Shown piece after piece: positions 10,386 to 46,283 of a DNA stretch of 64,000 bases. The notes below the pieces were generated by a model. It did not search any database. It was not told where the DNA came from and saw only the letters and a list, made by a program, of their open reading frames with translations. The DNA lies in IMG/VR virus record IMGVR_UViG_3300035659_000001; one strand, written 5' to 3'. The position numbers and the translations under genes were made by a program. This stretch comes from a virus (Duplodnaviria > Heunggongvirae > Uroviricota > Caudoviricetes). Each line of letters opens with the position of its first letter. The stretch's first letter is position 1.

Positions 10386-10407
10386 AATATTTACAAAGGA
10401 ATTTATT

Positions 10408-11574
10408 ATGAAACATTTAGCCAGTATCTTGAATGAATTCATTAAAATTGCAATTGAATCTGATTGGTGGAAAAAACTTGCACCAGAACAACAAAAAGAA
10501 TACATTAGACAACATAGACAAACAAAACTTAAGCCTGTTTTAACTGACGAACAAAAGCATACAAGAGAACTTTTGACGTCAATCCCAAAAGAATGGAAAA
10601 ATGAGTTAGTTAGACAACATGGTGCAGGAGAATCATCAAAGATTGAACAACTTCCTGACGTATTAAAACCTAGACAATTAAAAAATTTATTTGATGGAAC
10701 AAACATAAAAGCTATTATTGGTTTTAAAGCAGGCACGCCAATTACAGAAAAAGTACCAATATTTTATATTAAACCTGCTTACGAAAAAGATAAATTTGAA
10801 GCTCAAATTCTTAAAGAAGACAACTCTGTTAAACCCATTACTAAAACTGTTACTAAAAACAATAGACGTAATCGTTATAATCCAACTTTTAGTTATCAAA
10901 AAAGAGATTTAAGAATGACGAATATTGTTGAATCACTTCCTGATCAAGCATACACGGTTTTTGCTATTAGATCAGACGAAGAGAGATCAAAGATTCATCA
11001 AATGCGTGAAACGACAAAATCAACGACTAATATTCGTGACATTGAATTGAAATTAATATCAAATACAATCAAACCAATGTATGACTTTTATAAAACAAAA
11101 TTAGAAGATAACATCAGCAAACTTTCACAGCAAGCAGTACCTTCATTTGAAAGTGTTATAAGTGGTGTTAATGACATGAATGAATTGCCTGTAGTAAAAA
11201 ACACTATGGATACTATTAGTCAATTAAATAATAAATTGTCAAATTTGTCGTCAGATGTGTCAGCTTTTAAATATTATCATTTGCCCTCTCAAGGAAAATT
11301 ACTTTCTGAAAACAAATATGAAATTAAAGGTTTCTTAAATAAAGTTAAAGAAATAAAGAACAAGTATGTGCAAGATAGAAAAACTTTAATAGTAGATTTG
11401 TTAAAACGTAATCAAATTGATGAAGCGAACAAACAATTACAAGAATTTGATAGTAATGATCCTACTATTCAAGCGTCTTTAAATTTTATGAACACATTAA
11501 AAGAAAAGAAAAGAAATAATCAGCCTTATAATGAAGAATTAGCTCAAATTAAATCTTCACTTTCATGGCATTAA
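10408..11574 (+). CDS. MKH-leader family protein 3
   Basis: MKHLASILNEFIKIA..WWKKLAPEQQKEYIRQH. Confidence 0.8.
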   Translation: MKHLASILNEFIKIAIESDWWKKLAPEQQKEYIRQHRQTKLKPVLTDEQKHTRELLTSIPKEWKNELVRQHGAGESSKIEQLPDVLKPRQLKNLFDGTNIKAIIGFKAGTPITEKVPIFYIKPAYEKDKFEAQILKEDNSVKPITKTVTKNNRRNRYNPTFSYQKRDLRMTNIVESLPDQAYTVFAIRSDEERSKIHQMRETTKSTTNIRDIELKLISNTIKPMYDFYKTKLEDNISKLSQQAVPSFESVISGVNDMNELPVVKNTMDTISQLNNKLSNLSSDVSAFKYYHLPSQGKLLSENKYEIKGFLNKVKEIKNKYVQDRKTLIVDLLKRNQIDEANKQLQEFDSNDPTIQASLNFMNTLKEKKRNNQPYNEELAQIKSSLSWH

Positions 11575-11582
11575 ATAAATAT

Positions 11583-11642
11583 GGGGGTGTCAGGTTTCGA
11601 CACAAGATGAGAAATATAAAGTGCATGTAGAGGATTGTCGTT
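11583..11642 (+). ncRNA. ssrA: tmRNA 5' fragment (truncated)
   Basis: GGGGGTGTCAGGTTTCGAC ... GCATGTAGAGG..GTCGTT matches the tmRNA 5' end up to pseudoknot 1; no tag ORF or 3' end follows. Confidence 0.75.
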
Positions 11643-11643
11643 A

Positions 11644-12387
11644 TTACAAAACTTCAATACCATAGTATTTTGCATCACTTTTAAGAATATCTAAGTTAAT
11701 ATTTAAAAAAGACGAAATTAATGTTTTATATTCGCCTTTTATTTGAAAACTCTTCATTCTAAATATATTTTCACTTGTCAATATACAAATGACATCTCTA
11801 GCATAAATTTTAGTACGTCCAGTATCATTTATCATGCTACCTATAGTAATACTATCATTTATAAAACAAAACTCCATATTCATTGTGTCATTATATCGTA
11901 CTACAAAATAATCATAAGGAACATATTTAGCAGTATCAGACAATAATGGAAATATAAAACTAAATGTATAATTAGTGTCTTTAAAAGTTCCAGTTATATT
12001 TTTCAACCACAATATGTTGTCAAATCGTTTAGAACATCTTTTAATAATAGACGGCTTACTCTTATATACATTAATATTCACATCACAAGGACTAAGCCAC
12101 CAAGAACTTGAAATGTTTAATTGAGCTTTATATGAACTATCAGTTTTATTACTAAATAATAAATTTGAATAATAACCATATTTATTAGTATCAGACACTG
12201 ACTGTGTCCATAAAAAAAGTTTCAAACCTTTTTTTATATTAACTGTTTGTGATATAATACTATTGTTACCATTAGCATCATTAAATTGCCATGTAATAGA
12301 ATATTTTCCGGGTTTAGATAATAAAGTATCTGAAAATACTATATTACTAATAACAAAATTTGTCAATATAATTAATAGATAGCGCAT
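11644..12387 (-). CDS. Putative secreted protein
   Basis: Signal-like N-terminus; DTLLSKPGKYSITWQFNDANGN shared with neighbour. Confidence 0.65.
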   Translation of the reverse strand: MRYLLIILTNFVISNIVFSDTLLSKPGKYSITWQFNDANGNNSIISQTVNIKKGLKLFLWTQSVSDTNKYGYYSNLLFSNKTDSSYKAQLNISSSWWLSPCDVNINVYKSKPSIIKRCSKRFDNILWLKNITGTFKDTNYTFSFIFPLLSDTAKYVPYDYFVVRYNDTMNMEFCFINDSITIGSMINDTGRTKIYARDVICILTSENIFRMKSFQIKGEYKTLISSFLNINLDILKSDAKYYGIEVL

Positions 12388-12956
12388 TAGTTTATTGTAG
12401 TGTCTAGCAGTATTTGTATTATTCTTCCAGTTATAGTATCTCCACCAACACCTCCTCCACTACAATTATCTAAAGCTTTAGGACACTTTAAAGTATATGT
12501 TGAGTCTACTGTAATAGTGGGTAAAGGATTAACAATAGAAACAGGAGGAATAGTATCTTTAACTCTAACAATTTGACTCTGATAAGATTTATTTTTACCA
12601 TCATCATAATACCATGAAATAATAAAAGTGCCCTGTTGATTATAAAATAAAGGACTTACTGTCTTACCTTTAATAACTCTTTTAAAAAAACGATCATACG
12701 CTGTCGGCGTATCTGTAACTGTTATAGAACATTGCGCTTTAATAGTATCTAATGGAATTTTCTGAGGAATCGGTGCTGAGGTGTCTTTTATAAAAACAAT
12801 TTGAAGAACTGTCGCAGTGTTTCCATTTAAATCATCAAAACCCCATGTAATTGAATATTTACCTAATTTTGATAATAAAGTATCTGTGAAAGCAAACAAA
12901 TTACTAACACTTACTATTAATGTAAGCATAAACAACGCAATTACTTTAGAACGCAT
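12387..12956 (-). CDS. Putative secreted protein with HYR/Ig-like repeats
   Basis: Signal peptide; repeated Y.ITW.FDD.NGN..Q.V.IKDT.AP, ALDNCSG. Confidence 0.65.
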   Translation of the reverse strand: MRSKVIALFMLTLIVSVSNLFAFTDTLLSKLGKYSITWGFDDLNGNTATVLQIVFIKDTSAPIPQKIPLDTIKAQCSITVTDTPTAYDRFFKRVIKGKTVSPLFYNQQGTFIISWYYDDGKNKSYQSQIVRVKDTIPPVSIVNPLPTITVDSTYTLKCPKALDNCSGGGVGGDTITGRIIQILLDTTIN

Positions 12957-12976
12957 ACAACCCCCAATTTAAAATG

Positions 12977-14428
12977 TTATTCTTTACATATAAAATTCTC
13001 AAATGACCACATATTTTTACTCATTTGTGAACTTGGATTTTCTTTAAAATATTGATAAAAATCATTCACCGGAGTCCAACTTGATTCAGTTGAAACAAAT
13101 TTACCTAAATATGGTTTAGCTATCTTTAAAACATACTCATACGGTAAATCTTCAGGCACACAGACACCTTTATTAGGATTATCAATCATCCATAATATAG
13201 CTGCAATAGCTCCTATTGCAACTTGCACTGTCGTTGCACTTTGATGCTTAACTAACTTTCTTGCACTATTTATATCTAAAATACTTCCTGTCCACCATGA
13301 ATTATATTTATGACCCATTATCAAAGCACCAAGTCTATCCTCACCACTTACAATTTCATTATTCATTATTCTCAACTTAGATTGCATCTTATAATTGTTA
13401 CAACGAAATTCTTGTAATGATGCAATTGTACTATCACATGGTAAATATACATAATGAACAGTTGGTCTGTAAACAATTTTATTATTCTCGCTAACAGTTA
13501 AATACTTTGAAATAGTATAAGCTTCACCATGTCTCACAAGCATTCCAGTAATATTTTGATTTGGCACCCATGATTTTACATTGACATTTATACCCATCTT
13601 AGCTAAAAAAATCTTATTTTTATCTCCATATTCAGGTACATAAGCATTTAATGGAATAGCATCTTCATGAGTGCCCCACCCTAATTCAGCACAAGCTGTA
13701 CCTTCTTCTCTAAATCCTTCAAGACTCCAAGTACCGACAAATTCATCAACTAGCTTAGGCTTATTTGTTATTTGAGTATCTCTTTCACTACAATGAATAA
13801 CTTTGACGCCCAATAATCTTGCTAATAATGGAAATTTTATTTTTTCGTTTTTACTCAATATATCAATAATACTATTTTTATTTGTCATTGTTGAATCACA
13901 TAACATTTGATTAGCAATGTCAACTAAGCCTTGCTTAACGAAACTTGATATCAATCCTGGGTTAGCACCGTGTTCAATAATAGCAGTTGTAGAATTCTTA
14001 TTCCATGAATTAATCATCATCTGCAACTTATGATGTCTATAATATAATGATTTTTTGTCAATTGTACAACCAAATAAATCTTCTGTATCCCATACTTCAG
14101 TGGACGTATTTAAATACATCACACTATTATCATGACACCATTTTACAATGTCATTACAATCTATACTATAACCCAAATCAACTAATATATCATTAGACTT
14201 TACATACTTTGATAATATATCGTTGATATTTTCTTGCGCGATTTTTTCTTTTATGTATGTTAAACCACAAATTGTAAATTTTTCGAGGTCTTCACTTTTA
14301 TCTTGAAAATCAATGATTGTGACTCTGTCCACTGTTATGTCTACGTGCTTTAGTAATAATGGTAGAAAACATTGTGAGACAGAGCCGTAGCCAATTACGA
14401 TGATTCGATTTGCAAATTTTATCTTCAT
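12977..14428 (-). CDS. hss: Homospermidine synthase
   Basis: IGYGSV Rossmann motif, HGANPGLIS, SERDTQ, TWSLEGF.EEG, ELGWG, YRPTVHYVY, ATTVQVA. Confidence 0.9.
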   Translation of the reverse strand: MKIKFANRIIVIGYGSVSQCFLPLLLKHVDITVDRVTIIDFQDKSEDLEKFTICGLTYIKEKIAQENINDILSKYVKSNDILVDLGYSIDCNDIVKWCHDNSVMYLNTSTEVWDTEDLFGCTIDKKSLYYRHHKLQMMINSWNKNSTTAIIEHGANPGLISSFVKQGLVDIANQMLCDSTMTNKNSIIDILSKNEKIKFPLLARLLGVKVIHCSERDTQITNKPKLVDEFVGTWSLEGFREEGTACAELGWGTHEDAIPLNAYVPEYGDKNKIFLAKMGINVNVKSWVPNQNITGMLVRHGEAYTISKYLTVSENNKIVYRPTVHYVYLPCDSTIASLQEFRCNNYKMQSKLRIMNNEIVSGEDRLGALIMGHKYNSWWTGSILDINSARKLVKHQSATTVQVAIGAIAAILWMIDNPNKGVCVPEDLPYEYVLKIAKPYLGKFVSTESSWTPVNDFYQYFKENPSSQMSKNMWSFENFICKE

Positions 14429-14465
14429 ACATCTCCTTTCATATTCAATATAAATAAATTGATTA

Positions 14466-15679
14466 GTGAGATACTAATTAAAAATCAGTTTTCTGTTTTA
14501 AACAGACTTAAATTCCCTACTCTCCATAGGTACATATATTCCATTACACTGACCTACATGCTTAATCGTCTTTGCTGCTTTAACATCTCTATCTTCTACT
14601 AAACCACAACTACACTTATACACTCTATCACTCAATGCTATCTCGTTAATATTACCACACATGTAGCACATTTTAGTTGACGGAAACCATTTGTCTATAA
14701 CAAAAACGTTTTTGTTATATTTCAGTTTTGACTTAACTAATCCCATACAACTATGTTGCACAAACTTACCATACTTCTTGTGCCATTCGTGTAATTGCTC
14801 ATCTTGAATGTATATTTTATTGTAGTTTACTGATAAATAATTAACAATTTTATTGGTAGCATCTTTTTTTCTATTTGTATTATGTTCATATTCTCTTTTA
14901 ATCTTTATACAAGTTTTGTATCTATTGTTTGAACCCTTAATTTGTTTTGCTAATTTTTGTTGCAAGCGTTTAAGTCGTTCAGTTTCTTCAACAAACACAT
15001 TAAATATCTCACCATCAGATGTCACTAAATTATTCTTTATACCAAAATCAATTCCTACATCTCCTTTCACTTTATTTTTTATCATTTCTGGTTTAATAAA
15101 TTCATAACAAATTAATTTAATATAATAGCCTGAAGCTTTTTGTATCAATTTAGCATTTGCTATTTCATAACTTTCTTTTATTTGTTTTAACCCATACACT
15201 ATCAACGGCTTTTTTATGCCATTGATTTTTATTTTGTTTTTTGATATTATTTTATGTGTCACATTATATTGTGACAAGTCTATACTATTGTACGACGACT
15301 TAAATTTTAATCGTCCAACTTTAGTACCATTATTTTTGACTTTTGTTAATGTATGAATATTTTGATGTAATATTTTTACTACATCTTGTTTGTTTTTAGC
15401 TGGTAGATATTTTAGTTCTTTTTGTTCCAATTGTTTGTCTTTATTTAGAATAGTAATTGTAGCAATTTTAGAACTAATACTAAATGGGTCTTTTTGTGAA
15501 AGTATAAAATTATAAAGCCATTTAGCTTCAGTAAAGAACATTTTTAATGAAGTTGATTGTGTTTTATTTAATTTTGAATAATCAATTTTAAGCTCTATAC
15601 TTTTACAACGTTGAGTTTGTCGTTTTAATCGAGTTAATTTTAAAGTCTCTTTTGCTTTTTCTATTTTTGCTTTATTCAT
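14466..15679 (-). mobile_element. IS200/IS605-type TnpB-only element; right end ...TCAC near 14466
   Basis: tnpB followed on the minus strand by a subterminal hairpin-like tract ending TCAC; no tnpA seen. Confidence 0.6.
14498..15679 (-). CDS. tnpB: RNA-guided endonuclease TnpB
   Basis: VGIDFGIK (RuvC-I), IQDE, TKMCYMCG..YKCSCG Zn ribbon, DRDVKAAKTI (RuvC-III). Confidence 0.9.
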   Translation of the reverse strand: MNKAKIEKAKETLKLTRLKRQTQRCKSIELKIDYSKLNKTQSTSLKMFFTEAKWLYNFILSQKDPFSISSKIATITILNKDKQLEQKELKYLPAKNKQDVVKILHQNIHTLTKVKNNGTKVGRLKFKSSYNSIDLSQYNVTHKIISKNKIKINGIKKPLIVYGLKQIKESYEIANAKLIQKASGYYIKLICYEFIKPEMIKNKVKGDVGIDFGIKNNLVTSDGEIFNVFVEETERLKRLQQKLAKQIKGSNNRYKTCIKIKREYEHNTNRKKDATNKIVNYLSVNYNKIYIQDEQLHEWHKKYGKFVQHSCMGLVKSKLKYNKNVFVIDKWFPSTKMCYMCGNINEIALSDRVYKCSCGLVEDRDVKAAKTIKHVGQCNGIYVPMESREFKSV

Positions 15680-15786
15680 TTATATAATAGCTTATATATA
15701 AATAAAGTATTACATTAAATTTTCTAATATATTTATATTACGCAAATATAAAAGGTTCATGAACTAACAAGCGAGGTAAACAAAAC

Positions 15787-16371
15787 ATGAAGCATTTAGC
15801 TACAATACAAAGTGAGTTTTTAAAACAAGCACGTAGTTGGGATGATTTGTCAATAGAAGAACAAAGAGAATATCTCAACGAACATAGAAAAAGCAAAAAA
15901 AGATTAACTGCTGGACCAAAGAAACCTGATTTTTGGTTATGGATTCGTGGCAAAAAATTTAGAGACTCTGTTACTCATAAAGAAACACCTTTCATTTTAT
16001 TGCCTACAGATCAAAAAGCTGCAATTAGAAAACAATACGACGATGAAGAAGAAAAAAGAATACAACAAACTAAAGAAAAATTTGAAGAAGATCAAAAATT
16101 AAGACAAGAGAACGAAGAAAAGCGAAAAGAAAATGCAAAGTCGCCAAGTCATAGAGACTATAAATGGACACAATCAAGATTACAAAAACTTACTAAATTA
16201 TTTGGTGATGATGCTAAGAGAGATTTAGGTAAGCAAGCTTTCGAAGATAGTGTTCATGATTTAGCTCAAGGATTTTTGTATGATCATCCTGGCGTAAAAA
16301 CATATTTAAAAAGAGAAGGTATTGAAGAACCATATCAACTTGAATATATAGCAGATATGATTTATAATTAA
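15787..16371 (+). CDS. MKH-leader family protein 4
   Basis: MKHLATIQSEFLKQARSWDDLSIEEQREYLNEH. Confidence 0.8.
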   Translation: MKHLATIQSEFLKQARSWDDLSIEEQREYLNEHRKSKKRLTAGPKKPDFWLWIRGKKFRDSVTHKETPFILLPTDQKAAIRKQYDDEEEKRIQQTKEKFEEDQKLRQENEEKRKENAKSPSHRDYKWTQSRLQKLTKLFGDDAKRDLGKQAFEDSVHDLAQGFLYDHPGVKTYLKREGIEEPYQLEYIADMIYN

Positions 16372-16379
16372 GGAGTATC

Positions 16380-16862
16380 ATGAAACATTTAGCAACTATT
16401 CAAACAGAATTTACTAAATTAGCTCATAAATGGGATGATCTTTCTTTGGATGAACAACGACAATATCTCAAACGTCATCCAAAAACAAAAAGAAGACTCA
16501 CAGCAAGACCAAAAGGCACATCTCATACTACAAACTTTAATCCTGAACAAAAAACTGTTCAAGCTTTCTGGGATAACAAACAAAATTTTGCTAAACAATA
16601 TTTAACAAATATAGGTGAAATATTAAAATCTTCTTTTCCAAACGTTAAATTGTCTGAAATTGAAAATGAGTCTAATGCATTTGGTGAAATAAAAATAGTT
16701 AAATTTAGTGAACCTATAAGCATTGGCTCTTCTCATTATGACATTGGTATAAATCTTGACTATCCAAAAATTAGATGCAAAAATATAGAAAGTAATACAA
16801 ATCTTGATAGTCAACAACCAATTTCTTTAATTAACAAAATAAAGAAACTCTCAAAAGGTTAA
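16380..16862 (+). CDS. MKH-leader family protein 5
   Basis: MKHLATIQTEFTKLAHKWDDLSLDEQRQYLKRHPK. Confidence 0.8.
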   Translation: MKHLATIQTEFTKLAHKWDDLSLDEQRQYLKRHPKTKRRLTARPKGTSHTTNFNPEQKTVQAFWDNKQNFAKQYLTNIGEILKSSFPNVKLSEIENESNAFGEIKIVKFSEPISIGSSHYDIGINLDYPKIRCKNIESNTNLDSQQPISLINKIKKLSKG

Positions 16863-16865
16863 AAA

Positions 16866-17564
16866 ATGAAACATTTAGCTACAATACAAAGTGAGTTTTT
16901 GAAACAAGCTCGTAAGTGGAATGATCTTTCATTAGAAGACCAAAAAGCTTATTTGAAAAGACATCCAAAAACTAAAAGAAGACTGACAGCAAGACCAAAA
17001 TCTGCTCCTAAATCTGGAGTTTATGATTCAGAAACGCAAACAGATGAAATTGACAAGTTCATACAAAAATTTAGCGATAAATATGATAGTGCTATAGAAA
17101 TATGGATGTCAGATGAAAACAAACAAAAATTATATAAAATGTATAAGTCTGGCAAATACAATTTCAAAAGCGTTATACAAGACACAGATGATTTCATAAC
17201 TTGGGTTGATAATTCTAGTAATATTGATCAATTTATTAAAAACAAAAAAGACAAAGGCTGGCAATTATTTGATAGTGAAAATAATATGGATCAACACGAA
17301 TTTATTTTTTATAAAACAAAATCTAAAATTGAAGATCCACATACTGTTACATTAGATACTGTTTTTAGTTCACAAAAAGATGAACAACGTATGAAAAGTC
17401 AAGCTGAAAAAAACGGCGTTTCTGTCAAAATGACAAATGATAGAGCAACGCTTAAAGGTCCTAAAGACAAACTAATCAAAATCATTAATAAATTTTATGA
17501 TGACGGTAGTGGTGATTTATCCCATTTACATAATCTTATAAAACCATTAAAGAAAAATAAGTAA
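16866..17564 (+). CDS. MKH-leader family protein 6
   Basis: MKHLATIQSEFLKQARKWNDLSLEDQKAYLKRHPK. Confidence 0.8.
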   Translation: MKHLATIQSEFLKQARKWNDLSLEDQKAYLKRHPKTKRRLTARPKSAPKSGVYDSETQTDEIDKFIQKFSDKYDSAIEIWMSDENKQKLYKMYKSGKYNFKSVIQDTDDFITWVDNSSNIDQFIKNKKDKGWQLFDSENNMDQHEFIFYKTKSKIEDPHTVTLDTVFSSQKDEQRMKSQAEKNGVSVKMTNDRATLKGPKDKLIKIINKFYDDGSGDLSHLHNLIKPLKKNK

Positions 17565-17665
17565 CATTTCTACGCTTTTTGACGTGAATATATTTTTGAG
17601 AATAATTGTACACTTTGATGAAAATGTAATATATTATTACCATAAGATAAGACTTAAAAATTTAG

Positions 17666-17700
17666 AAAGCTCCGTTGGACAACCACCGGAGCTTTTTTTT
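17666..17700 (+). terminator. Hairpin plus U-tract overlapping the SD of the next gene
   Basis: AAAGCTCCG..CGGAGCTTT then T-run; GGAG lies in the 3' arm. Confidence 0.65.
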
Positions 17701-17703
17701 GCT

Positions 17704-23949: not shown

Positions 23950-23957
23950 TGTTTCTT

Positions 23958-24041
23958 GCTAAGATGGCGGAATTGGCATACGCTCTATGTTCACCATAGT
24001 CCTCTTCAAAGAGGGTAAGAGTTCAAGTCTCTTTCTTAGCA
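23958..24041 (+). tRNA. Leu-type tRNA body with abnormal anticodon loop (TTCAC; UCA if read as a 7-nt loop)
   Basis: GCTAAGA/TCTTAGC A73, Leu-like D loop and V arm; CTATG-TTCAC-CATAG. Confidence 0.65.
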
Positions 24042-24053
24042 TTTATTACATTA

Positions 24054-27158: not shown

Positions 27159-27594
27159 ACCGAAGAGGCGCAACGGGATAAAAAAGATTGTAGTTCAAAA
27201 CGTCAAGCCTTTGGCGGACGTTGTATGCCATAATTTTTCATCTGGAGATTATATGCCCGCCGAAGAGTTCTATCAACCGAATGAGTCAGGATCATTTACT
27301 TATGTTTTACAAAACAATAAATTAGCAAAGATAAGTATTGTTGATATCATAAACAAGCAACAAGAATCTTTTGAGATTAATTCTATACAAATTGAAAAGT
27401 AATAATTATTTTATAATTTCTAAAATAATACATGGTAGTGATTATCGGAAGTGCTCTTGGAGTTGTCTAGTTGTAAATAGAAACGTTGAAGAGAGAAGTT
27501 ACTTTTGTAACGATCAATAATTAGCAAATATTGTACTCTTAGTGGTCAATGATCATAATGGTTATTGACCACTTAATTTAACAAAAAGGATTGT

Positions 27595-27708
27595 ATGAGT
27601 TTCATTATTCGATTTTTACTTGAAGCATTTGCAACATCTGTTGTACTAGCCACAATTGCAACGTTTGCTATTACAGTGATTAATACAAGGAGATCACATA
27701 GAACTTAG
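27595..27708 (+). CDS. Putative Ile/Thr-rich leader peptide, 37 aa
   Basis: AAGGA SD; MSFIIRFLLEAFATSVVLATIATFAITVINTRRSHRT*. Confidence 0.6.
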   Translation: MSFIIRFLLEAFATSVVLATIATFAITVINTRRSHRT

Positions 27709-27770
27709 AGGTCAACTAAATACAAGGAAATATTTAAAGGGCCTCTAAAATGATTTAGGGGCCCTTTTTA
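27705..27770 (+). promoter_or_regulatory. Antiterminator/terminator (attenuator 1)
   Basis: TTAGAGGTC (27705-13) pairs GGCCTCTAA (27740-48), the 5' arm of terminator AAAGGGCCTCTAAA/TTTAGGGGCCCTTT-TT. Confidence 0.65.
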
Positions 27771-27781
27771 TTTGGTAAGGT

Positions 27782-27964
27782 ATGAAATATATGGAAAAAT
27801 TAATAGCTTTATTCTTGATATTACTGAATTGTTCTAGTAGTTTAGAGATAATAACCGATTCTATCCGAAATGTTCAAGAAATTAAAAGCAAAAAACAAAT
27901 TGTTAGAATAGATTCGACAATTGTTGATGGCAAAAAATTCTATGACGTACATTATAGGAACTAA
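27782..27964 (+). CDS. Small putative lipoprotein
   Basis: Hydrophobic N-terminus ending LLNC. Confidence 0.5.
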   Translation: MKYMEKLIALFLILLNCSSSLEIITDSIRNVQEIKSKKQIVRIDSTIVDGKKFYDVHYRN

Positions 27965-28033
27965 ATTATTATGACTTATTTGCTTGAAACAAAATTTTTA
28001 CAATATGATACGTTTACTGTTTAAGGAGCATGT

Positions 28034-28627
28034 ATGACCTCGGTTATTGTTTTAACTAGAGACTATCAATTTTGGGGAGAAATTGATTTAGAATCTAAAG
28101 GCAGACAAAGATTTTGGAAGTTATTATCAAAAGAAAAAATAGAAATCTTAGCTGCAGATGAATATGAAGAAATAGGTACTACATCTTTTAAAGTAAAAAA
28201 ACCGTTTGTTATTCGCTTACTAAAATTTGTAGGCTATAAAATAAAGAAATCAGAGATTAATTGGAGTGCTGAAGCTATTTTTGCAAGAGACAATAATGTA
28301 TGTCAATACTGGCATTATAATGAATATAGTAAGTCATTTAAATACCGTTGCAAAGATGGCGAAAGAACAATTGATCATTTAGAACCGAGGTCAAGAGGCG
28401 GAGAAAATACGTTTGAAAATACGGTCTGTGCATGTCATGACTGTAACGTGAATATTAAAAAAGATAGACCGCTAAAAGATACTGGTCTAAAATTAATAAG
28501 AAAGCCGTTTGTGCCAAAACAGAATAAAGATGATTTTGCAATTATAAAATTTGCGTATAATCCTAATAAACTATCACATAGAATATATGTTGAAAGAATA
28601 TTGGGAGGAGAAGTTTTAGGAGATTAG
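28034..28627 (+). CDS. HNH endonuclease (HNH_5-like)
   Basis: IFARDNNVCQY, TIDHLEPRSRGG.NTFENTVCACHDCN. Confidence 0.85.
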   Translation: MTSVIVLTRDYQFWGEIDLESKGRQRFWKLLSKEKIEILAADEYEEIGTTSFKVKKPFVIRLLKFVGYKIKKSEINWSAEAIFARDNNVCQYWHYNEYSKSFKYRCKDGERTIDHLEPRSRGGENTFENTVCACHDCNVNIKKDRPLKDTGLKLIRKPFVPKQNKDDFAIIKFAYNPNKLSHRIYVERILGGEVLGD

Positions 28628-28691
28628 CTCAGACAGTTAGAGCACAGTCCTGATAAGACTGAGGTGACTGGCGCGATACCAGTATCTCCTA
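28618..28691 (+). tRNA. tRNA-Ile (GAU)
   Basis: AGGAGAT/ATCTCCT; CAGTC-CTGATAA-GACTG; overlaps HNH stop. Confidence 0.85.
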
Positions 28692-28763
28692 TTTTTACAA
28701 TTTTAGAGTTGAATATGAACTTTATTTGTGACAATTAAGACAATTATGAAACAAGGAGCTTTT

Positions 28764-28940
28764 ATGATTGATGCTAAAATGTTAGTAGATAGTCAAGTTT
28801 GTGTTTCATTTGCAGAAGCTAGAAGTTTAATACAGAGTATGTCTGAAGAAAAACTAGTGCAACTATTGAAACAAAAGCAAGATCAACAATGGGGTCGTAA
28901 ACTTAAAAAATCTGTTAGATTAGTATGGCCTGAATTATGA
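28764..28940 (+). CDS. Hypothetical protein
   Basis: AAGGAG SD before MIDAK. Confidence 0.5.
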   Translation: MIDAKMLVDSQVCVSFAEARSLIQSMSEEKLVQLLKQKQDQQWGRKLKKSVRLVWPEL

Positions 28941-29188
28941 TTTATGTTGATGATTTGAAACAATATGATACTAAATTGAAAAATAAAACATGGTGTCATT
29001 TATGGGCTGATGATGTTTCAGAGTTACATGAATTTGCTCAGAAAATAGGTTTAAAACGCGAGTGGTTTCAAAATAAAAAATTATTTGCTCATTATGATTT
29101 AGTGTTAAATAAAAGAATATTAGCACTTGAAAACGGAGCAACATATATTAATTTAAAGCAATATTTAAAAACAAAAGTGCTACAGTAG
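28937..29188 (+). CDS. DUF4031-like protein
   Basis: IYVDD..WCHLWAD..ELHEFAQKIGLKREWFQ..HYDL. Confidence 0.85.
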   Translation: MIYVDDLKQYDTKLKNKTWCHLWADDVSELHEFAQKIGLKREWFQNKKLFAHYDLVLNKRILALENGATYINLKQYLKTKVLQ

Positions 29189-29251
29189 CTCAATTAGTAG
29201 AGTTCATCCTTTGTAACGATGATGTTGCGGGTGCGAGTCCTGCCTGTAGCT
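29179..29251 (+). tRNA. tRNA-Thr (UGU)
   Basis: GCTACAG/CTGTAGC; CATCC-TTTGTAA-CGATG. Confidence 0.85.
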
Positions 29252-29254
29252 TTT

Positions 29255-29292
29255 AAAACACGAGGTTGACAGTGCAAGTCTGTCCAGATCCA
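29255..29292 (+). pseudogene. Orphan tRNA 3' half
   Basis: ACACG-AGGTT-GACAG-TGCAAGT-CTGTC-CAGATCC-A, no 5' half. Confidence 0.6.
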
Positions 29293-29303
29293 TTATAGAT
29301 TTT

Positions 29304-29383
29304 GCCCGTATAGTCGAGTCTGCCTTCTAAGTAGATAATCGTAATTGGAACTGAAAATACTGGTTCGAATCCAGTTACGGGTA
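29304..29383 (+). ncRNA. tRNA-Arg(UCU)-like RNA with rearranged D arm
   Basis: GCCCGTA/TACGGGT acceptor; TCTGC-CTTCTAA-GTAGA precedes a D-loop-like TAATTGGA; canonical T arm. Confidence 0.7.
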
Positions 29384-29460
29384 TTAATTTTTTAAAGAAA
29401 GTGAGATATTTTTCTAAAGAAAGAATAGGTCAAATTTAATCCGAGTTAATCAATATCATA

Positions 29461-29482
29461 AAAAGCCAGATTTCTGGCTTTT
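29461..29482. terminator. Bidirectional-type hairpin after tRNA cluster
   Basis: AAAAGCCAG-ATTT-CTGGCTTTT. Confidence 0.6.
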
Positions 29483-30187
29483 GTTACGTCTAGAGCATTT
29501 TAAAAAGATATTTTGAACAAAACAGCCCCCATAATATCGTGCGCGCGTATAGACACGTGATTCAATGAAAATAAATTTTTCGATCAAGTTAAAACTTGAA
29601 TGTCCATTTGTAAACCTAGCAATAACGACAGCTGCATGCTATTCTAAATTCTTTGTTTACATTTTGCGAAGAGTTACTTTTCTTATGAAAAAATGGCAAA
29701 TTATAAATTGAAAATGCCTGTTTCTAACGCGATGCGTGCGCGCTAGTGCGATGTGCGCGTACACGCGCGAAAACAGACAATTACGATCTCTGCACGTGAA
29801 AGCTGCAACTAAAAATTATAGTGTGTTTACATTTAGGAAAAATTTGATGAATGTGGACAGTTGGTTTTGTAGTATCGCGATAATTTACATCTACGCGTTG
29901 AGAAATGTCAGTTGTCGTAGACTTTGTAGAAAAATTTAAAAATGAGATACTATTTAGTAATAACATTATAATTAGAATTTAAGTCGCCCAGTTCATAAAA
30001 AAAAAGTTTTTTAAGCATTCGTAAACTTTTGTTGAGAAAATGCATATAAAAAAATGAGCCTTTCGAAGAAAGGATCATGTCATTATGTACTCAAAAATAA
30101 GTCTATTCGTAAGTTAAGATCTAAGAGTTTCAATGAATACTCGATTAACATGAAATCTTGTAATTTATATAATTGTAAGCCGACAAA

Positions 30188-30910: not shown

Positions 30911-30965
30911 TAAAAATATGTTTCTTTGACTAAAATGATATATATTAAGTATAGGTGATGAAATT

Positions 30966-31043
30966 ATGAAAAATCTTAATTCAAACAGTTTATATCGGCT
31001 AGGTCAACGACAACCGCGACCAAAAGGCAAGAATAATGTTTGA
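30966..31043 (+). CDS. Putative Gln/Pro/Arg leader peptide, 25 aa
   Basis: AGGTGA SD; MKNLNSNSLYRLGQRQPRPKGKNNV*. Confidence 0.6.
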   Translation: MKNLNSNSLYRLGQRQPRPKGKNNV

Positions 31044-31110
31044 GTGAGATAGTGTAGAAGTTATTGAATAAAAAAAGAGTCTCACTTGAAAAAGAGGGAC
31101 TCTTTTTTTA
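31041..31110 (+). promoter_or_regulatory. Antiterminator/terminator (attenuator 2)
   Basis: TGAGTGAGAT (31041-50) pairs GTCTCACTTG (31079-88) in terminator AAAAAAGAGTCTC..GGGACTCTTTTTTT. Confidence 0.7.
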
Positions 31111-31121
31111 TTTGGAATAAA

Positions 31122-31194
31122 CGGGGCGTAGCTCAATTGGCTGAGCACATGATTTGGGTTCATGCGGTTATCAGTTCGACTCTGATTGCCCCGA
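31122..31194 (+). tRNA. tRNA-Pro (UGG)
   Basis: CGGGGCG/TGCCCCG; CATGA-TTTGGGT-TCATG. Confidence 0.9.
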
Positions 31195-31225
31195 TAAATC
31201 ATTGGATTAATGATTGAAAATATAC

Positions 31226-31300
31226 TGGAGCATGGTGTAATTGGCAACACAGAAGCCCTTGGAGTTTCTTTTCATGGTTCGAGTCCATGTGCTCCAGCCA
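31226..31300 (+). tRNA. tRNA-Gln (UUG), C33
   Basis: TGGAGCA/TGCTCCA GCCA; GAAGC-CCTTGGA-GTTTC. Confidence 0.85.
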
Positions 31301-31545
31301 ATTTTGAAATTATTAGAAAATTATAATGATAGTGAAATATTATCTAAGATAAAAAAACTACTGTAGTCTTCTTCAATTTATTTTAATCTTTTACAAATTT
31401 ATTTTCTTTTCATTGTAAAACTATTTGATTTAAATAACTTAATTAAGAGATTATTTTATGTTAAAAGTTTTAATAAACTAAATTTGTTCATCAACATTTA
31501 GTTTTTGATTTTAAAGCTTGTAAATTGATTAAAGGGAGTATAGTT

Positions 31546-31766: not shown

Positions 31767-32933
31767 ATGTATCATACAAGTCTCATTGACAATGATTTAT
31801 ATAAATTTACTATGGAATGGGCAGTTTGTAAGTTATATCCGGATTTGAAAGTTCGGTATACTTTAATAATTAGAGACGACGTAGAATTTCCTGTAGGTTT
31901 TGCAAATCGATTAAAAGAAATTGTAGATAGTTATAGAGGACTAACACTTAAAAAAAATGAGAAAGATTTTCTTAGATATAAGTGTTATTATTTACCAAGT
32001 ATGTATCTTGATTTTTTGAGTGGTTATCAGTATGATCCATCTGAAGTAAGTATTTCTCAGCCAGGTGGTCATTTATTTGTGACAGTTGAAGGTTATTGGT
32101 ATCGAACGATTTTGTGGGAAGTACCATTGATGGCAACGATAAGCGAACTGTATTTTGAGATGAAGGGGTTGAAAGGTTTATCTATAGAAGAGCGACATAA
32201 GATTAATCATGATAAAGCTGTTGCATTAGCTAATTTGGGCGTGTACTTTTCTGAGTTTGGTACAAGACGAAGATATTCATTTGAGAATCAGAAAATGTGT
32301 GTCGCTGACATGAAAGAATATGCAGGTAATCATTTAGTAGGCACATCTAATCCATATTTGGCTATGTTGTATGAACTTACACCAATGGGAACACTTGCTC
32401 ATGAATGGATATCTGCACATGCAGCTATGTTCGGATATCAAATGGCAAATAAAGCGTCTTTAGATGCATGGTCAAATGTTTATCAGGGTGATCTTGGAAT
32501 AGCTTTGCCGGATACATTTACGACAGACGAGTTTTTGAGGTCGTTTAATACATATCATACTAAGTTGTGGGATGGTTTGCGACATGATTCATTTGATCCA
32601 TTTGTTTTTACTGATAAGGTTGTTGATCATTATAGAAAATTGAAAGTGTCGCCGATGTTTAAGACTATATTGTATTCTGACAATATAAATAGTATAGGTA
32701 AAGTTACACAAATTCATGATTATTGTAAGAATCGAATAAATGATCGATATGGGCCAGGTACATGGATGTCCAATGATGTTGGTGTTACGCCATTGAATAT
32801 GGTTATTAAGTTGACTGCGTGCTATGTAAATGGTCGATGGGTATGGGCAGTAAAGTTATCAGATACTGAGTCAAAGAATACTGGTAATGAAGCTGAAGTG
32901 AGGTTATGTAAAGAGACATTAAAGTTATTTTGA
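31767..32933 (+). CDS. pncB: Nicotinate phosphoribosyltransferase
   Basis: LIDNDLYKFTM, SEFGTRRRYS, GTSN, GTLAHEW, GIALPDT, GLRHDS, NMVIKL, KLSD. Confidence 0.95.
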   Translation: MYHTSLIDNDLYKFTMEWAVCKLYPDLKVRYTLIIRDDVEFPVGFANRLKEIVDSYRGLTLKKNEKDFLRYKCYYLPSMYLDFLSGYQYDPSEVSISQPGGHLFVTVEGYWYRTILWEVPLMATISELYFEMKGLKGLSIEERHKINHDKAVALANLGVYFSEFGTRRRYSFENQKMCVADMKEYAGNHLVGTSNPYLAMLYELTPMGTLAHEWISAHAAMFGYQMANKASLDAWSNVYQGDLGIALPDTFTTDEFLRSFNTYHTKLWDGLRHDSFDPFVFTDKVVDHYRKLKVSPMFKTILYSDNINSIGKVTQIHDYCKNRINDRYGPGTWMSNDVGVTPLNMVIKLTACYVNGRWVWAVKLSDTESKNTGNEAEVRLCKETLKLF

Positions 32934-32939
32934 GGAAAG

Positions 32940-33668
32940 ATGGAAAAAACGTCAACTAGTGAGTTGTTGAGTATAGCAGAAAGAATAAAAGCTACTTGTT
33001 TAAAAGATTTAGCAAATCAAATAGGTGTGTCTCATCAAGCAGTACATCAAAAAGCGCTGTATTATGGCATAGATTATGAGTTAAAAGCTATATTTAGAGA
33101 GAATCGGCCCGTAATATCATTACTTCCAAAAATGCCGGGTATAGTTATATTTCAAGGAAAAGATGAAAAGATTTATTTGTATTCAAAAGCTAATATTAGA
33201 ATAATTGCTAAAGCACATTATCACAAGTTTAAAGATTATAAATTATCTTATGTTGTTGTTGATAAATCTAAAGTGATTTTAGAATGTTTGAAAAGACGGT
33301 TTAAAGATCCTGATTCAAGACTTCTTTGTGAAAAAGAAAGCGGTAAATTTCCATATATGCATAATAGAAAAAATAAAAGATATTTTATATATACGCCTCA
33401 AAGTCAGATGTGCTTAGGATATGCTTTGACTTTTGAAGATGCTATTAATATTTTGAAACGGTATGTTTTTAATAAAAAAATAGAAAAGAAAAAGTTATTT
33501 GTTCAAACTGTTTCAAGTGACAAGTTATATAAATTGTATGTAGAGAAGAAATTAAACCTTGATGAAATTGCAAAAAAAATGCATACGTCTGCAAGTACAA
33601 TTTATCTTAGTTTGAGAAAATTAAATATTCCAATTAATAATGTTGGGAGACCAAAAAATGATAAGTGA
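32940..33668 (+). CDS. HTH-containing protein, possibly degenerate homing endonuclease
   Basis: HTH-like segments at both ends (LANQIGVSHQAV; IAKKMHTSASTI); PGIVIF..IYLY resembles decayed GIY-YIG. Confidence 0.5.
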   Translation: MEKTSTSELLSIAERIKATCLKDLANQIGVSHQAVHQKALYYGIDYELKAIFRENRPVISLLPKMPGIVIFQGKDEKIYLYSKANIRIIAKAHYHKFKDYKLSYVVVDKSKVILECLKRRFKDPDSRLLCEKESGKFPYMHNRKNKRYFIYTPQSQMCLGYALTFEDAINILKRYVFNKKIEKKKLFVQTVSSDKLYKLYVEKKLNLDEIAKKMHTSASTIYLSLRKLNIPINNVGRPKNDK

Positions 33669-34464
33669 AAATGAAATTAAAAAAGTAATTAATTGGCTTA
33701 ATTGTAGATTAGTTGACTCTAAACAAAATGGATTTGTTATTGGTATTTCTGGGGGAATTGATTCTGCTGTTGTATCTGCTCTTTGTGCTGAAACAGATAA
33801 ATCTACTATGGTTATTAGTTTACCAATACATCAATGTCAAACACAAATTGACCAAGCTTCAGATCACGTAACGTGGTTATTAGAGAGATATTCTAATGTT
33901 GTGTCTTATTATTTAGATTTGACGGAAGCATTTGAATCATTAAAAGACTCTATTCGACTGTGTTTAAATTATGATTTAGTGCTTGCAAATATGAGGTCTA
34001 GATTGAGAATGACTACATTATATGCTTATGCTAATAGTTTTGGATGTTTAGTGGTTGGTACAGGAAATAAAATTGAAGATTTTGGCATTGGTTTTTTTAC
34101 GAAGTATGGTGATGGCGGAGTAGATATTAGTCCAATAGGTGATTTTATGAAGTCTGAAGTATATGATATTGCAAGATATTTTGAGATTATTCCATCAATA
34201 CAACAGGCAAAACCTACAGATGGACTTTGGGGTGATAATCGTACTGACGAAGATCAGATAGGTGATACTTATGTAAATCTTGAAAAAGCAATGTTATTTT
34301 GTGAAAAATTGAAGATTGAGACTGTTCAACACTATGAAGAATTGAAAAAATTAGGTTTTATTGAATTGGTTGATGTTGAAGAAAAGACTTTATATAATTA
34401 TTTAAAAAGGCACGAAAATAATTTGCATAAAATGGTAATGCCGTTAATATGCAACTATAATTAA
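33658..34464 (+). CDS. nadE: NH3-dependent NAD+ synthetase
   Basis: GISGGIDSA, NMRSRLRM, GTGNKIE, GFFTKYGDG, KSEV, PTDGLW..TDEDQIG. Confidence 0.95.
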   Translation: MISENEIKKVINWLNCRLVDSKQNGFVIGISGGIDSAVVSALCAETDKSTMVISLPIHQCQTQIDQASDHVTWLLERYSNVVSYYLDLTEAFESLKDSIRLCLNYDLVLANMRSRLRMTTLYAYANSFGCLVVGTGNKIEDFGIGFFTKYGDGGVDISPIGDFMKSEVYDIARYFEIIPSIQQAKPTDGLWGDNRTDEDQIGDTYVNLEKAMLFCEKLKIETVQHYEELKKLGFIELVDVEEKTLYNYLKRHENNLHKMVMPLICNYN

Positions 34465-34483
34465 ATTAAATGAAAGGATGTGT

Positions 34484-35293
34484 ATGGCTACAAAAAGAAA
34501 AGTTTGTGTTCTTGGAATTGATCCACAAGACGATTTTGTAAATCGTAGTGGACAAGCTAAGCTTAAGGTTGACGGTGCTGTTGCTGGCGCTGACAATGTG
34601 TCAAAGATGATAACTCGATATGGTGGAGACATCGATGATATTCAGCTTACGATGGATTCACATTATCATATCCATATTGCACATTCTTGTTGGTGGTTGG
34701 ATAAGAATAATAATCATCCTAAACAATTTACTCTTATTCCGCATGATGCTGTTATGAGCAAGGATTTTAGAGCAAATGATCCAGCGCGGCAACAGTGGTC
34801 TGAGTATTATACTGAGCAATTGATGAAGAACAAGCGGTTTACTGTGTGTATATGGAATGATCATTGTATTATTGGATCAGATGGGCAAAAAATTGATCCT
34901 GTTATATATGAAGCAGTGACTAAGTGGGAGCATGACTTTTATGCTATGGCTGTGAGGACTACAAAAGGTTCATGTATGTTTACTGAACATTATTCTGCTG
35001 TTAAGGCAGAAGTAGAATATCCGAAAGATATTTCAACAAGGTTTAATAATGACTTTGTTAATGTTTTGAAGACGTTTGATGATATCCTTGTATGGGGTTG
35101 GGCACTTTCTCACTGTTTGAATTTTACAATGTCTGACATTGCTGAGGATTTTGGAGATGATCAGGTTAAGAAGATTGTGCTTCTTACTGATGCAACTTCA
35201 AGTGTGGGTGGCTTTGAAAAGGACGGCGATGATTTTGTTAATCGTATGGTTGCAAAAGGAATGCGTACTGCCACGACAAAGACATTTTTCTAA
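34484..35293 (+). CDS. pncA: Nicotinamidase / isochorismatase-family cysteine hydrolase
   Basis: IDPQDDF, TMDSH, WNDHC, KG..EHYS, GWALSHC. Confidence 0.8.
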   Translation: MATKRKVCVLGIDPQDDFVNRSGQAKLKVDGAVAGADNVSKMITRYGGDIDDIQLTMDSHYHIHIAHSCWWLDKNNNHPKQFTLIPHDAVMSKDFRANDPARQQWSEYYTEQLMKNKRFTVCIWNDHCIIGSDGQKIDPVIYEAVTKWEHDFYAMAVRTTKGSCMFTEHYSAVKAEVEYPKDISTRFNNDFVNVLKTFDDILVWGWALSHCLNFTMSDIAEDFGDDQVKKIVLLTDATSSVGGFEKDGDDFVNRMVAKGMRTATTKTFF

Positions 35294-43671: not shown

Positions 43672-44400
43672 ATGTTAACAAGAGATAGTTTATTAACTGT
43701 TGCAGGTGTTTCAGAACCACCATCATCTACAATATTACCGTTTTCGCATATTCATCCAAAAGCACATTTAACTACAAAACATATAGTTTCTAAAGGTGGA
43801 GTTTCTACGCCAGTTTTTGACAATATTAAAGAGCAAAGTGCATCTTCAGGAGATGCACCACTTTTATTAATAAATATACCCATGAGTATGAGTTTAAATG
43901 AAGGTGATGATTTGTTTTTATCTGCTGCTGCTTATGGTAGTGAACCTTTAAATTATCAATGGAAGAAAAACAATATTGATATTACTGGTGCAACAAGTTC
44001 TGTTTATCAAAAATTTAATGTTCAAGCAAGTGATGAAGCTGCTTATAAATGTGTAGTTACAAATGTTTATGGTTCAACTGTAAGTCATGTATGTGAAGTT
44101 ACTGTTGTTACTGCTGTTACTCAGTATACAGTTGATTTTACTGCTGGAGCTGGTGGAAGCATTAGCGGAAGCACAAGTCAACTTGTTGATGAGGGTGATG
44201 ATTGTACTGCTGTTGAAGCTATGCCAAATGAAGGATATGAATTTAATGGTTGGACTGAAGATGTTACAAGTTCTGAGAATCCATTAACAGTTCATAATGT
44301 GGTGACAAATATGAATATTACAGCAAATTTTATATTAATACCACCAGTGGGACCTAATATGAATGTGCTTAATTATTATTATAATCAAATGAATGAATAA
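43672..44400 (+). CDS. Ig-domain + InlB B-repeat protein
   Basis: PLNYQWKKN..GATS..YKCVVTN; PNEGYEFNGW..ENPLTV..ITANF. Confidence 0.8.
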   Translation: MLTRDSLLTVAGVSEPPSSTILPFSHIHPKAHLTTKHIVSKGGVSTPVFDNIKEQSASSGDAPLLLINIPMSMSLNEGDDLFLSAAAYGSEPLNYQWKKNNIDITGATSSVYQKFNVQASDEAAYKCVVTNVYGSTVSHVCEVTVVTAVTQYTVDFTAGAGGSISGSTSQLVDEGDDCTAVEAMPNEGYEFNGWTEDVTSSENPLTVHNVVTNMNITANFILIPPVGPNMNVLNYYYNQMNE

Positions 44401-46283
44401 TGCAACCATTAATTGAAAATAGAGATTACGGTACGTCTGGTTTAGATCAACTTGAAAAACAGTATGTTAGTCTACCAGACATGTTACAAAAACAAGTCAA
44501 ACGACAATTTAAAAATAGAGTAAAGGAGTCAAACATGAGCAATGTTGAAAAAATTGCTACAGAGATTTTGGCTGCAGAAGAGAAAGAGGCAGTGTCGCCA
44601 AAAGGATGGAAGGGAACCACTGAGGCTATGAAATCGCATAAAAATATTACAAACCCATGGGCATTATGTTTTACTGCAGATACAAAAGTTCCATTGTTAG
44701 ATGGTAGAGTATTAACAATGATTGAATTGGTTAAAGAATTTGGAAACGATAAAGATACTTATGTTTATTCGTATGACATTGAAAATGATAAAGTTGTTGT
44801 TGGTCGAGCATTTAATTTTCATAAAACTGCAGAAAACGCTAATGTGCTTGAAATAGAATTAGACAATGGACAGAAAATAAAATGCACATTATTTCATAAA
44901 TTTTTAATGCAAGATGGATCATATAAAGAAGCAAAAAATTTAAAGTCAAACGATTCATTAATGCCAATTTATTTTGACAGGCATGAAGGATCATTTTGTC
45001 AAGATTATAAAAGAGTGTGGTCAAAAGATGGTAAAAAACATTTTGTTCATCGTATAGTTGCTGCATATAATTTTGGTAAAGAATGGCAATCTGGGTTTAT
45101 TAATCATCATTATGACTTTAATAAAGACAATAATCATCCAGAAAATATTAAAATCATGACAGCTAGTGATCATTCTAAATTTCATAGACAACAAGATGGT
45201 GCTAAGCATTTAATAGAATATATTAGATCTGAAAAAGGACGAAAAATGTCGTCTATTAATGGCAAGAAAAACATGAAAAAATTATGGCAAGAGCAAAGAG
45301 AACAACAAATTGAAAATTGTAAAAAAAATGGGCAATTAGGCGCAGAAACAGGAAGAAAAGCATTGTTAAAATTTAATAATTCACAAAAAACTAAAGATGC
45401 TGTTGCTGAAAGAACTCTTAATGGTTCAATGACAAAAGGTAAAATTACAAAAATAGCAGCAAAAATAATTTCTTTAGGATTAGATGTTAATGAAGCGACT
45501 TGGAGTGAGCACAAAGGATATGCTTCAAGCCCTAATTTTAGTACGGCTATTGAATTATTTAATGATGTAGAAACATTAAAAAAATACGCAAAAGACAGAA
45601 GTTTATATGGCAGTATGATAAAGTCTAGAATTTTAAAAGTTGCAAAAAGAATATTAGATGCTGTACTTCCAATTAATGAAGACTCCTGGGAACGATTTAG
45701 ACGAACCAGAAAGAATCCGCCATTTGATAAAGCAATAGAAAAATTTGGATCTATTGACAATATTGTTTTTGAGACTGAAAAAAGACATAATATGATTGTA
45801 AATCATAAAGTTATTAATGTTAGATTGATTGATATTAAAGAAGATGTTTATGATTTTACAGTTGATAAATATCACAATTTTGCGCTTGATGCAGGTGTTT
45901 TTGTTCATAATAGTTGGTGGATGAGTAAGAAAAAACCTGGAGAATCATGGGGCAAAGGTGGAAAATTAACTAAAAAGCCAGAGCCTCATTATAAAGAGAA
46001 AAAATCTTTTGATGAAAAAGTTTCAGCTATTATTGAAATGGTAGAACCAGCAGAAGTATCTGTAGAAGAATTTTCTTTGCCAATGGTTGATTCAACAAAA
46101 AAATATTCTACTGAAGATTCAATAAAAACTGATGATGGATATATCACTATCAAATCTAATTATGATGAAAAAAATGGTGAGCCATTATTGGAAGAATATA
46201 TTGTTGACAAAAATGGAGATGTCGAAACATATAATGATGTTGAATCATTTGCTCAAAGATTAATAAGTGAAGGATTGTTGTAA
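44400..46283 (+). CDS. Intein-containing hypothetical (likely virion) protein; alternative start 44535
   Basis: Extein ..NPWAL / SWWMSKK.. split by intein; AAGGAG SD before M46. Confidence 0.8.
   Translation: MQPLIENRDYGTSGLDQLEKQYVSLPDMLQKQVKRQFKNRVKESNMSNVEKIATEILAAEEKEAVSPKGWKGTTEAMKSHKNITNPWALCFTADTKVPLLDGRVLTMIELVKEFGNDKDTYVYSYDIENDKVVVGRAFNFHKTAENANVLEIELDNGQKIKCTLFHKFLMQDGSYKEAKNLKSNDSLMPIYFDRHEGSFCQDYKRVWSKDGKKHFVHRIVAAYNFGKEWQSGFINHHYDFNKDNNHPENIKIMTASDHSKFHRQQDGAKHLIEYIRSEKGRKMSSINGKKNMKKLWQEQREQQIENCKKNGQLGAETGRKALLKFNNSQKTKDAVAERTLNGSMTKGKITKIAAKIISLGLDVNEATWSEHKGYASSPNFSTAIELFNDVETLKKYAKDRSLYGSMIKSRILKVAKRILDAVLPINEDSWERFRRTRKNPPFDKAIEKFGSIDNIVFETEKRHNMIVNHKVINVRLIDIKEDVYDFTVDKYHNFALDAGVFVHNSWWMSKKKPGESWGKGGKLTKKPEPHYKEKKSFDEKVSAIIEMVEPAEVSVEEFSLPMVDSTKKYSTEDSIKTDDGYITIKSNYDEKNGEPLLEEYIVDKNGDVETYNDVESFAQRLISEGLL
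44667..45911 (+). mobile_element. Intein (415 aa) with HNH homing endonuclease
   Basis: C1 CFTADTKV, block B CTLFHKF, HNH FVHRIVA..HHYDFNKDNNHPENI, C-end VYDFTVDKYHNF..VHN/S. Confidence 0.92.

Follow-up and report, generated by a model that had tools for sequence, protein, structure and literature searches.

Putative ribosome-stalling transcription attenuators ahead of tRNA gene clusters in giant phages

Comparative sequence analysis makes it very likely that a ribosome-stalling transcription attenuator gates phage tRNA clusters, such that production of the Pro and Gln tRNAs by the phage analyzed here is probably confined to times when these codons are decoded slowly. In the 64,000-nucleotide stretch of phage DNA under study (hereafter, the window), a short leader ORF containing Gln and Pro codons is followed by an antiterminator and an intrinsic terminator that share one RNA segment, and then by tRNA-Pro and tRNA-Gln (unit 1, Table 1). 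In the attenuators of amino-acid operons, the leader ORF contains regulatory codons, hairpins II:III and III:IV are mutually exclusive, and stalling of the ribosome leads to read-through (PMC1183508).

The question of why phages carry tRNAs goes back more than 50 years, and such tRNAs have been discussed as a counter to host tRNA depletion, with no mention of attenuation or promoters (PMC10264068). Another study deals with tRNA shortage as resistance (PMC11726456); together, the two papers describe a setting in which a sensor of this kind would be useful. The sequence-only reading that proposed the attenuator knew of no described case controlling phage tRNA genes, and our literature search, with subscription papers mostly outside its scope, likewise found no account of one.

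The window and its relatives

The window is AT-rich (G+C 30%), contains 16 tRNA calls, and encodes tail-like and nucleotide-metabolism genes along with many homing endonucleases; it looks like a piece of a giant-phage genome. The relatives are contigs of 330-440 kb, two of which are IMG/VR virus records. The close relatives L021 and L022, two contigs from a single sample, were reached via flanking genes, and distant loci were gathered via a neighboring HNH gene and tRNA searches. Scans of viral contigs with single proteins or tRNA patterns yielded no close relative, the pncB matches in the relative search mostly lacked synteny, and no annotated phage relative was found.

Elsewhere in the window, an Rfam HEARO RNA (61199-61408, 91 bits) lies ahead of a 428-codon ORF, an intein contains an HNH domain (44400-46283, Pfam), and six ORFs within 8338-17564 have in common an N-terminal motif starting MKH(L/F). 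The tRNA-SeC(UCA) that ARAGORN calls at 23957-24042 is not among the Rfam hits; its D arm is Leu-like and its anticodon loop irregular, and it is possibly an odd Leu tRNA or a UGA reader.

Table 1. Coordinates of the predicted regulatory elements and tRNAs in the window
Feature	Coordinates	Strand	Basis or remarks
Unit 1: sigma70-like promoter, 11/12 match	30145-30173	+	sequence; predicted
Unit 1: candidate -10 box TATATT, weak -35	30941-30946	+	predicted; invariant in L021 and L022
Unit 1: Shine-Dalgarno-like AGGTGAT	30953-30959	+	sequence; invariant in L021 and L022
Unit 1: leader ORF 1, 25 codons, ATG at 30966	30966-31043	+	frame kept in two relatives
Unit 1: possible segment 1 of a 1:2 protector/pause helix with 31037-31050	30973-30986	+	this lineage only
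Unit 1: control codons CAA CGA CAA CCG CGA CCA (QRQPRP), codons 14-19	31005-31022	+	sequence
Unit 1: antiterminator 5' strand, spans stop codon	31039-31050	+	pairs with 31079-31090
Unit 1: stop TGA of leader ORF 1	31041-31043	+	inside antiterminator 5' strand
Unit 1: intrinsic terminator, U-tract 31103-31109 (seven U)	31066-31113	+	folding
Unit 1: antiterminator 3' strand, part of terminator	31079-31090	+	folding
Unit 1: tRNA-Pro(UGG), G37, no encoded CCA	31122-31194	+	Rfam 57.8 bits
Unit 1: tRNA-Gln(UUG), G37, unusual C33, encoded CCA	31226-31300	+	Rfam 51.7 bits
Unit 2: leader ORF 2, 37 codons, rich in Ile, Thr, Ala, AGR Arg	27595-27708	+	sequence
Unit 2: antiterminator 5' strand, 9 bp with 27740-48, contains stop	27705-27713	+	-14.8 kcal/mol, z -5.7
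Unit 2: terminator	27736-27769	+	-21.9
Unit 2: tRNA-Ile(GAU)	starts 28617	+	tRNA call
Unit 2: tRNA-Thr(UGU)	starts 29179	+	tRNA call
Unit 2: Ala-like tRNA 3' half	near 29260-29296	+	unit 2 cluster
Unit 2: tRNA-Arg(UCU), without normal D arm, long variable region	29304-29383	+	Rfam 37 bits
Unit 2: cluster terminator	29460-29484	+	
Probable relic: promoter-like TTGTAC-18-TATATT and terminator, without leader or antiterminator	17606-17701	+	sequence

Leader, terminator and antiterminator of unit 1

The sequence-only reading had described a Shine-Dalgarno sequence, a 25-codon ORF with the QRQPRP tract, and two tRNAs about 12 nt past the U-tract of a strong terminator, in the geometry of the trp, his and thr attenuators. 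All these elements are present at the positions it gave: the leader ORF, the cognate codons, the exclusive hairpins and the spacing, with a gap of 12 nt between the U-tract and tRNA-Pro. The pairing it noted between the stop-codon segment and the terminator (31041-50 with 31079-88) extends to 12 bp, three of them G.U, and because 31079-31090 belongs to both structures, the terminator and the antiterminator are mutually exclusive. The antiterminator duplex has a folding energy of -14.6 kcal/mol, reached by 14 of 5000 shuffled sequences; when the terminator 3' arm does not yet exist, its folding gives -11.7 (z -3.1). The terminator itself, which was found by folding and was not called by a simple terminator scanner, has -23.1 kcal/mol (z -7.6).

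Folding with the ribosome imposed as a constraint flipped the structure in the way that had been proposed. With the A site at codons 11-20 and a footprint assumed to extend to +14 nt, the antiterminator formed in 93-96% of the molecules; it was gone by codon 23, where the terminator reached 99%, placing the switch boundary, for this assumed footprint, at codons 21-23. Once the U-tract side exists, the more stable structure at equilibrium is the terminator, accounting for 57-77% of the molecules in unit 1 (codons 11-19) and prevailing at every ribosome position in unit 2, so the switch decision must be kinetic.

Transcription of the leader could start from the candidate -10 box next to it or farther upstream, at the sigma70-like promoter (30145-30173), and then cross the phosphoesterase gene that precedes the leader; a TATATT -10 also precedes leaders in L109, L118 and L120. 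A separate promoter for the tRNAs, which would have undermined the proposal, does not fit into the gap before tRNA-Pro, and no promoter match was found on the + strand of 30917-31304. In L118 (14797) and L120 (1281, 2314), leaders start about 6-12 nt past a TTGACA-17-TATATT promoter, and this short distance suggests that some leaders of these phages are translated leaderless.

The control tract occupies codons -12 to -7 counted from the stop, within a run of codons starting with C, at the peak of the family-wide codon-position profile described below. Pro and Gln make up 21% of the leader 1 codons compared to 11% in other leaders, ranking 6 of 31 for this cluster, and the probability of at least four readable Pro/Gln codons among 13 is about 0.004. 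Thus, the proposed agreement between the Gln/Pro codons and the downstream tRNAs holds, in that the cognate tRNAs do follow, but, taken singly, this match is modest and only suggestive; the strength of the case comes from the relatives.

tRNAs and neighboring genes downstream of unit 1

Arg had been proposed as a third stall codon along with Gln and Pro; the unit 1 cluster has no tRNA-Arg for CGA. In L021 and L022, tRNA-Gln is followed by remnants of an Arg(ACG) tRNA that complement each other between the two relatives (recognized by eye, the automatic alignment being poor). In more distant phages, this cluster includes Arg(CGN) tRNAs that are intact. Given these decayed and intact genes at the same cluster in relatives, the CGA codons of leader 1 may be relics of a lost Arg tRNA. 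The decayed Arg(ACG) genes (L021 2068-2120; L022 2300-2357) have the same body type as tRNA-Arg(UCU) of the window.

tRNA-Gln carries C instead of U at position 33, as do a few tRNAs of L108, L109 and L118. In L022, which has an intact leader, about 200 nt resembling a homing-endonuclease remnant (1915-2117) separate the terminator from tRNA-Pro. The tRNA pair in the window is immediately followed by the NAD salvage genes pncB, nadE and a nicotinamidase-like gene (31767-35293), then by vWA, PP2C-like and kinase genes. The interval from tRNA-Gln to pncB showed no terminator, so pncB-nadE-pncA might be on the same transcript as the tRNA pair.

Conservation of unit 1 in close relatives

The whole of unit 1 is retained in L021 and L022. 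A 3-nt indel leaves the leader frame intact in both, as expected for a conserved leader, and the only substitutions in the control tract are synonymous. In these close relatives, both antiterminator strands are 100% identical to the window and the control tract 94-100%, compared to 42-50% in codons 20-23, 73% in the loop and 84-90% in neighboring DNA. The tRNA bodies diverge more (71-80% identity), with the Pro-then-Gln order retained.

This pattern bears on the idea that the unit is a stand-alone small gene or sRNA, encoding a peptide or type I toxin, or else a tRNA-binding leader of the T-box type. A promoter-like box, a Shine-Dalgarno sequence and a terminator do enclose a unit of 150 nt, and the leader 2 peptide is hydrophobic; however, the peptide drifts freely outside the control tract, and neither Pfam nor NCBIfam gave a match. 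T-box riboswitches work independently of translation, by direct binding of uncharged tRNA; the likeness is that tRNA status chooses between terminator and antiterminator. No T-box match was detected here (Rfam E up to 5), and no other Rfam family came near its cut-off. We consider these explanations extremely unlikely.

A second unit and a probable relic of a third

Unit 2, which with its tRNA cluster spans 27595-29484, has the same organization. All five Ile codons of its leader are ATT, although ATA accounts for 40% of the Ile codons in the window, and the Thr codons are mostly ACA. Counterparts of the unit 2 switch were found in L026, L108, L110 and L111. Just upstream of leader 2 is a long hairpin without a U-tract (27540-27574), itself preceded by a 12-codon Val/Ile-rich ORF (near 27434-27472).

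The largest tRNA cluster of the window, with His, Asp, Trp, Gly, Glu, Tyr, Met, Leu, Lys and Ser tRNAs, lies behind the promoter-like element and terminator at 17606-17701. The unit of G001 has a similar promoter and tRNA set but also a 46-codon leader, and the element in the window is probably the relic of a third unit, its missing leader reflecting either a real deletion or an assembly error.

A family of units in related giant phages

Units were selected by a scan for a terminator, an ORF and tRNAs that was blind to codons, yielding 31 non-redundant ones. The sequence-only reading had suggested looking for leader codons that change with the downstream tRNA set, and they do: 54.4% of the leader codons specify amino acids of the unit's own cluster, compared to 29.0 +/- 2.4% under permutation, and the maximum in 200,000 permutations was 0.404. 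Within eight genomes, the true pairing of leaders and clusters is the best of 331,776; the units are related by descent, so P values overstate independence, and this within-genome test is the least affected. Synonymous choice also tracks the anticodons, with 129 readable codons compared to 92 expected (z 5.7).

In L023, L108, L109, L111 and L118, clusters with Pro and Gln tRNAs have leaders rich in these two amino acids; the L108 leader contains RRPQPQP, and that of L109 reads NPNQPNQP, with a tRNA-Asn in the cluster. Leaders of the Ser/His, Gln/Leu, Met/Lys/Arg or Phe/Ser/Cys type stand before other clusters, and a further unit, added after the scan, fits the rule, its Phe/Asn/Ser/Cys cluster being preceded by a leader rich in S, N and F. 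L205 and L208 are selected units that fail the codon match, and L194, L198-15797 and L205 lack the antiterminator.

Matching codons are enriched at positions -6 to -18 from the stop, up to 0.89 at codon -12, whereas the last five leader codons match at 0.15-0.37 against a background of 0.22. A ribosome that stalls within the enriched region, 6-18 codons before the stop, would not block the antiterminator. The median antiterminator duplex energy is -14.2 at the units compared to -5.5 at 102 terminators without tRNAs, and a short ORF combined with an antiterminator accompanies 29 of the 39 terminators that tRNAs follow, compared to 2 of 99 that lack tRNAs. Covariation, another proposed check, was found across distant phages: the 8-bp core of the Pro/Gln antiterminator is 97.9% paired in six sequences (21-55% in slid controls), with compensatory double changes at two of the eight core pairs and three pair types at one position. 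Searches of viral contigs with a pattern for the Pro/Gln switch gave two phages already in the set and one chance match, and the matches in 11 bacterial genome contigs all looked fortuitous; the pattern is too narrow to speak against cellular examples.

These comparisons weigh heavily against a simpler account, namely, that the hairpin is the plain terminator of the upstream gene, the ORF is fortuitous, and the tRNAs are expressed through leakage, a phage antitermination protein or an overlapping promoter. Short ORFs are common, the terminator is the most stable fold, and the cluster at 17669 carries a dozen tRNAs without a leader. Against this stand the frame conservation, the covariation, the codon-to-tRNA tracking, the position profile and the lack of a promoter match next to the leader; the codon match and the position profile already largely refute this account, which we consider very unlikely. 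The interpretation of unit 1 as an attenuator draws its support from the conserved frame, the covariation, the codon tracking and the modelled switching.

Proposed mechanism and the signal sensed

Leader translation, pausing and regulation are proposed here by analogy with the trp/his paradigm (PMC1183508), the phage tRNA cluster being placed under negative feedback by ribosome-mediated transcription attenuation. In the model, as long as the ribosomal A site has not passed codon 20, 31039-31050 would stay free to form the antiterminator before the terminator 3' arm appears, resulting in read-through; from codon 23 on, the ribosome would cover this segment, letting the terminator form. Scarcity of charged, functional tRNA would slow the decoding of CAA, CCG/CCA and CGA and turn on tRNA-Pro and tRNA-Gln; the new tRNAs would then speed up leader decoding and shut off their own synthesis. 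With several units per phage, each monitoring its own tRNA set, the system would most likely serve as a general supply control, whatever the cause of the shortage.

That the phage would replace tRNAs in response to shortage agrees with this stalling logic; the stronger claim, which confines this response to depletion or cleavage of host tRNAs, for example by anticodon nucleases, exceeds the evidence, because a stalled ribosome is blind to the cause and the units of one phage cover up to 19 amino acids. A dedicated counter-defence sensor, evolved to fire when a host anticodon nuclease cleaves tRNA-Pro or tRNA-Gln, would be in line with the proposal that phage tRNAs with anticodon-loop changes replace cleaved host tRNAs (PMC10264068), with C33 in tRNA-Gln and with the divergence of the tRNA bodies beyond that of neighboring DNA; making more tRNA would also be most sensible if the tRNA body itself were missing. 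However, a nuclease targets few tRNAs, the units of one phage span 13-19 amino acids, and an attenuator cannot read why a ribosome has stalled. We therefore regard a dedicated sensor as unlikely; the joint coverage of most amino acids by the units is better explained by feedback on tRNA supply in general.

It is similarly doubtful that the practical signal is amino-acid starvation or a lost decoding helper, such as m1G37 made by TrmD, or EF-P, and not tRNA number. Classical attenuators do answer to amino-acid supply (PMC1183508), and the Pro/Gln clusters read C-starting codons almost exclusively; in the window leader, 8 of 13 codons start with C compared to 11.7% background (P 3e-5, a post hoc test). 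Both tRNAs of the window have G37, and, within a cluster, the first codon letter is more uniform than expected by chance (0.62 compared to 0.51). Conversely, extra tRNA is no cure for a lack of amino acids, G37 is not universal (A37 in Gln and Arg of G001), TrmD was not found in five related phage records, and leader 1 has no Pro-Pro pair. Because tRNAs sharing a first codon letter tend to be clustered together, base-37 modification may play a role.

Taken together, the units likely constitute a genome-wide tRNA-supply sensor, in which attenuators share out the genetic code, each gating its own cluster, also under tRNA destruction by host defence, and in which relic control codons such as CGA would record lost tRNA genes.

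Relation to known systems and implications

The units resemble trpL, hisL, pheL, leuL and the multivalent thrL and ilvL in the leader ORF, the regulatory codons, the exclusive hairpins and the intrinsic terminator, although none of the Rfam leader families (Thr, Phe, His, Trp, Leu) reached threshold (best scores 21.8 for Thr_leader and 22.2 bits, compared to 55). They differ from amino-acid attenuators in controlling tRNA genes rather than biosynthetic enzymes, in being phage-borne, with several units per genome that share out the code, and in that the leader codons match the anticodons controlled. Unlike in those systems, an I:II pause helix does not appear to be a general feature: the 1:2 helix has -13.4 kcal/mol (p 0.013) in the window and -14.2 in L021 and L022, values that depend on the chosen 5' end, and p is 0.01-0.05 across these three, but the helix is weak or absent in most other units.

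The E. coli pheM attenuator controls the pheST synthetase via the level of charged tRNA and is alike in placing part of the translation supply chain under a leader peptide; its target is a synthetase, whereas that of the phage unit is the tRNA itself, which would close a direct loop. In the Salmonella mgtL leader of mgtA, proline codons report decoding speed in an EF-P- and TrmD-sensitive manner, as leader proline codons may do here, but mgtL is bacterial, Rho-dependent and controls a Mg transporter.

If the proposed attenuation is real, phage tRNAs would be an on-demand reserve, and the leader would show which shortage the phage is built for. A simple reporter could then distinguish between codon compensation, decay of host tRNAs and defence by anticodon nucleases. 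Attenuation would then reach beyond amino-acid operons to tRNA genes. It would also explain the grouping of phage tRNAs and offer compact, codon-specific sensors of tRNA supply.
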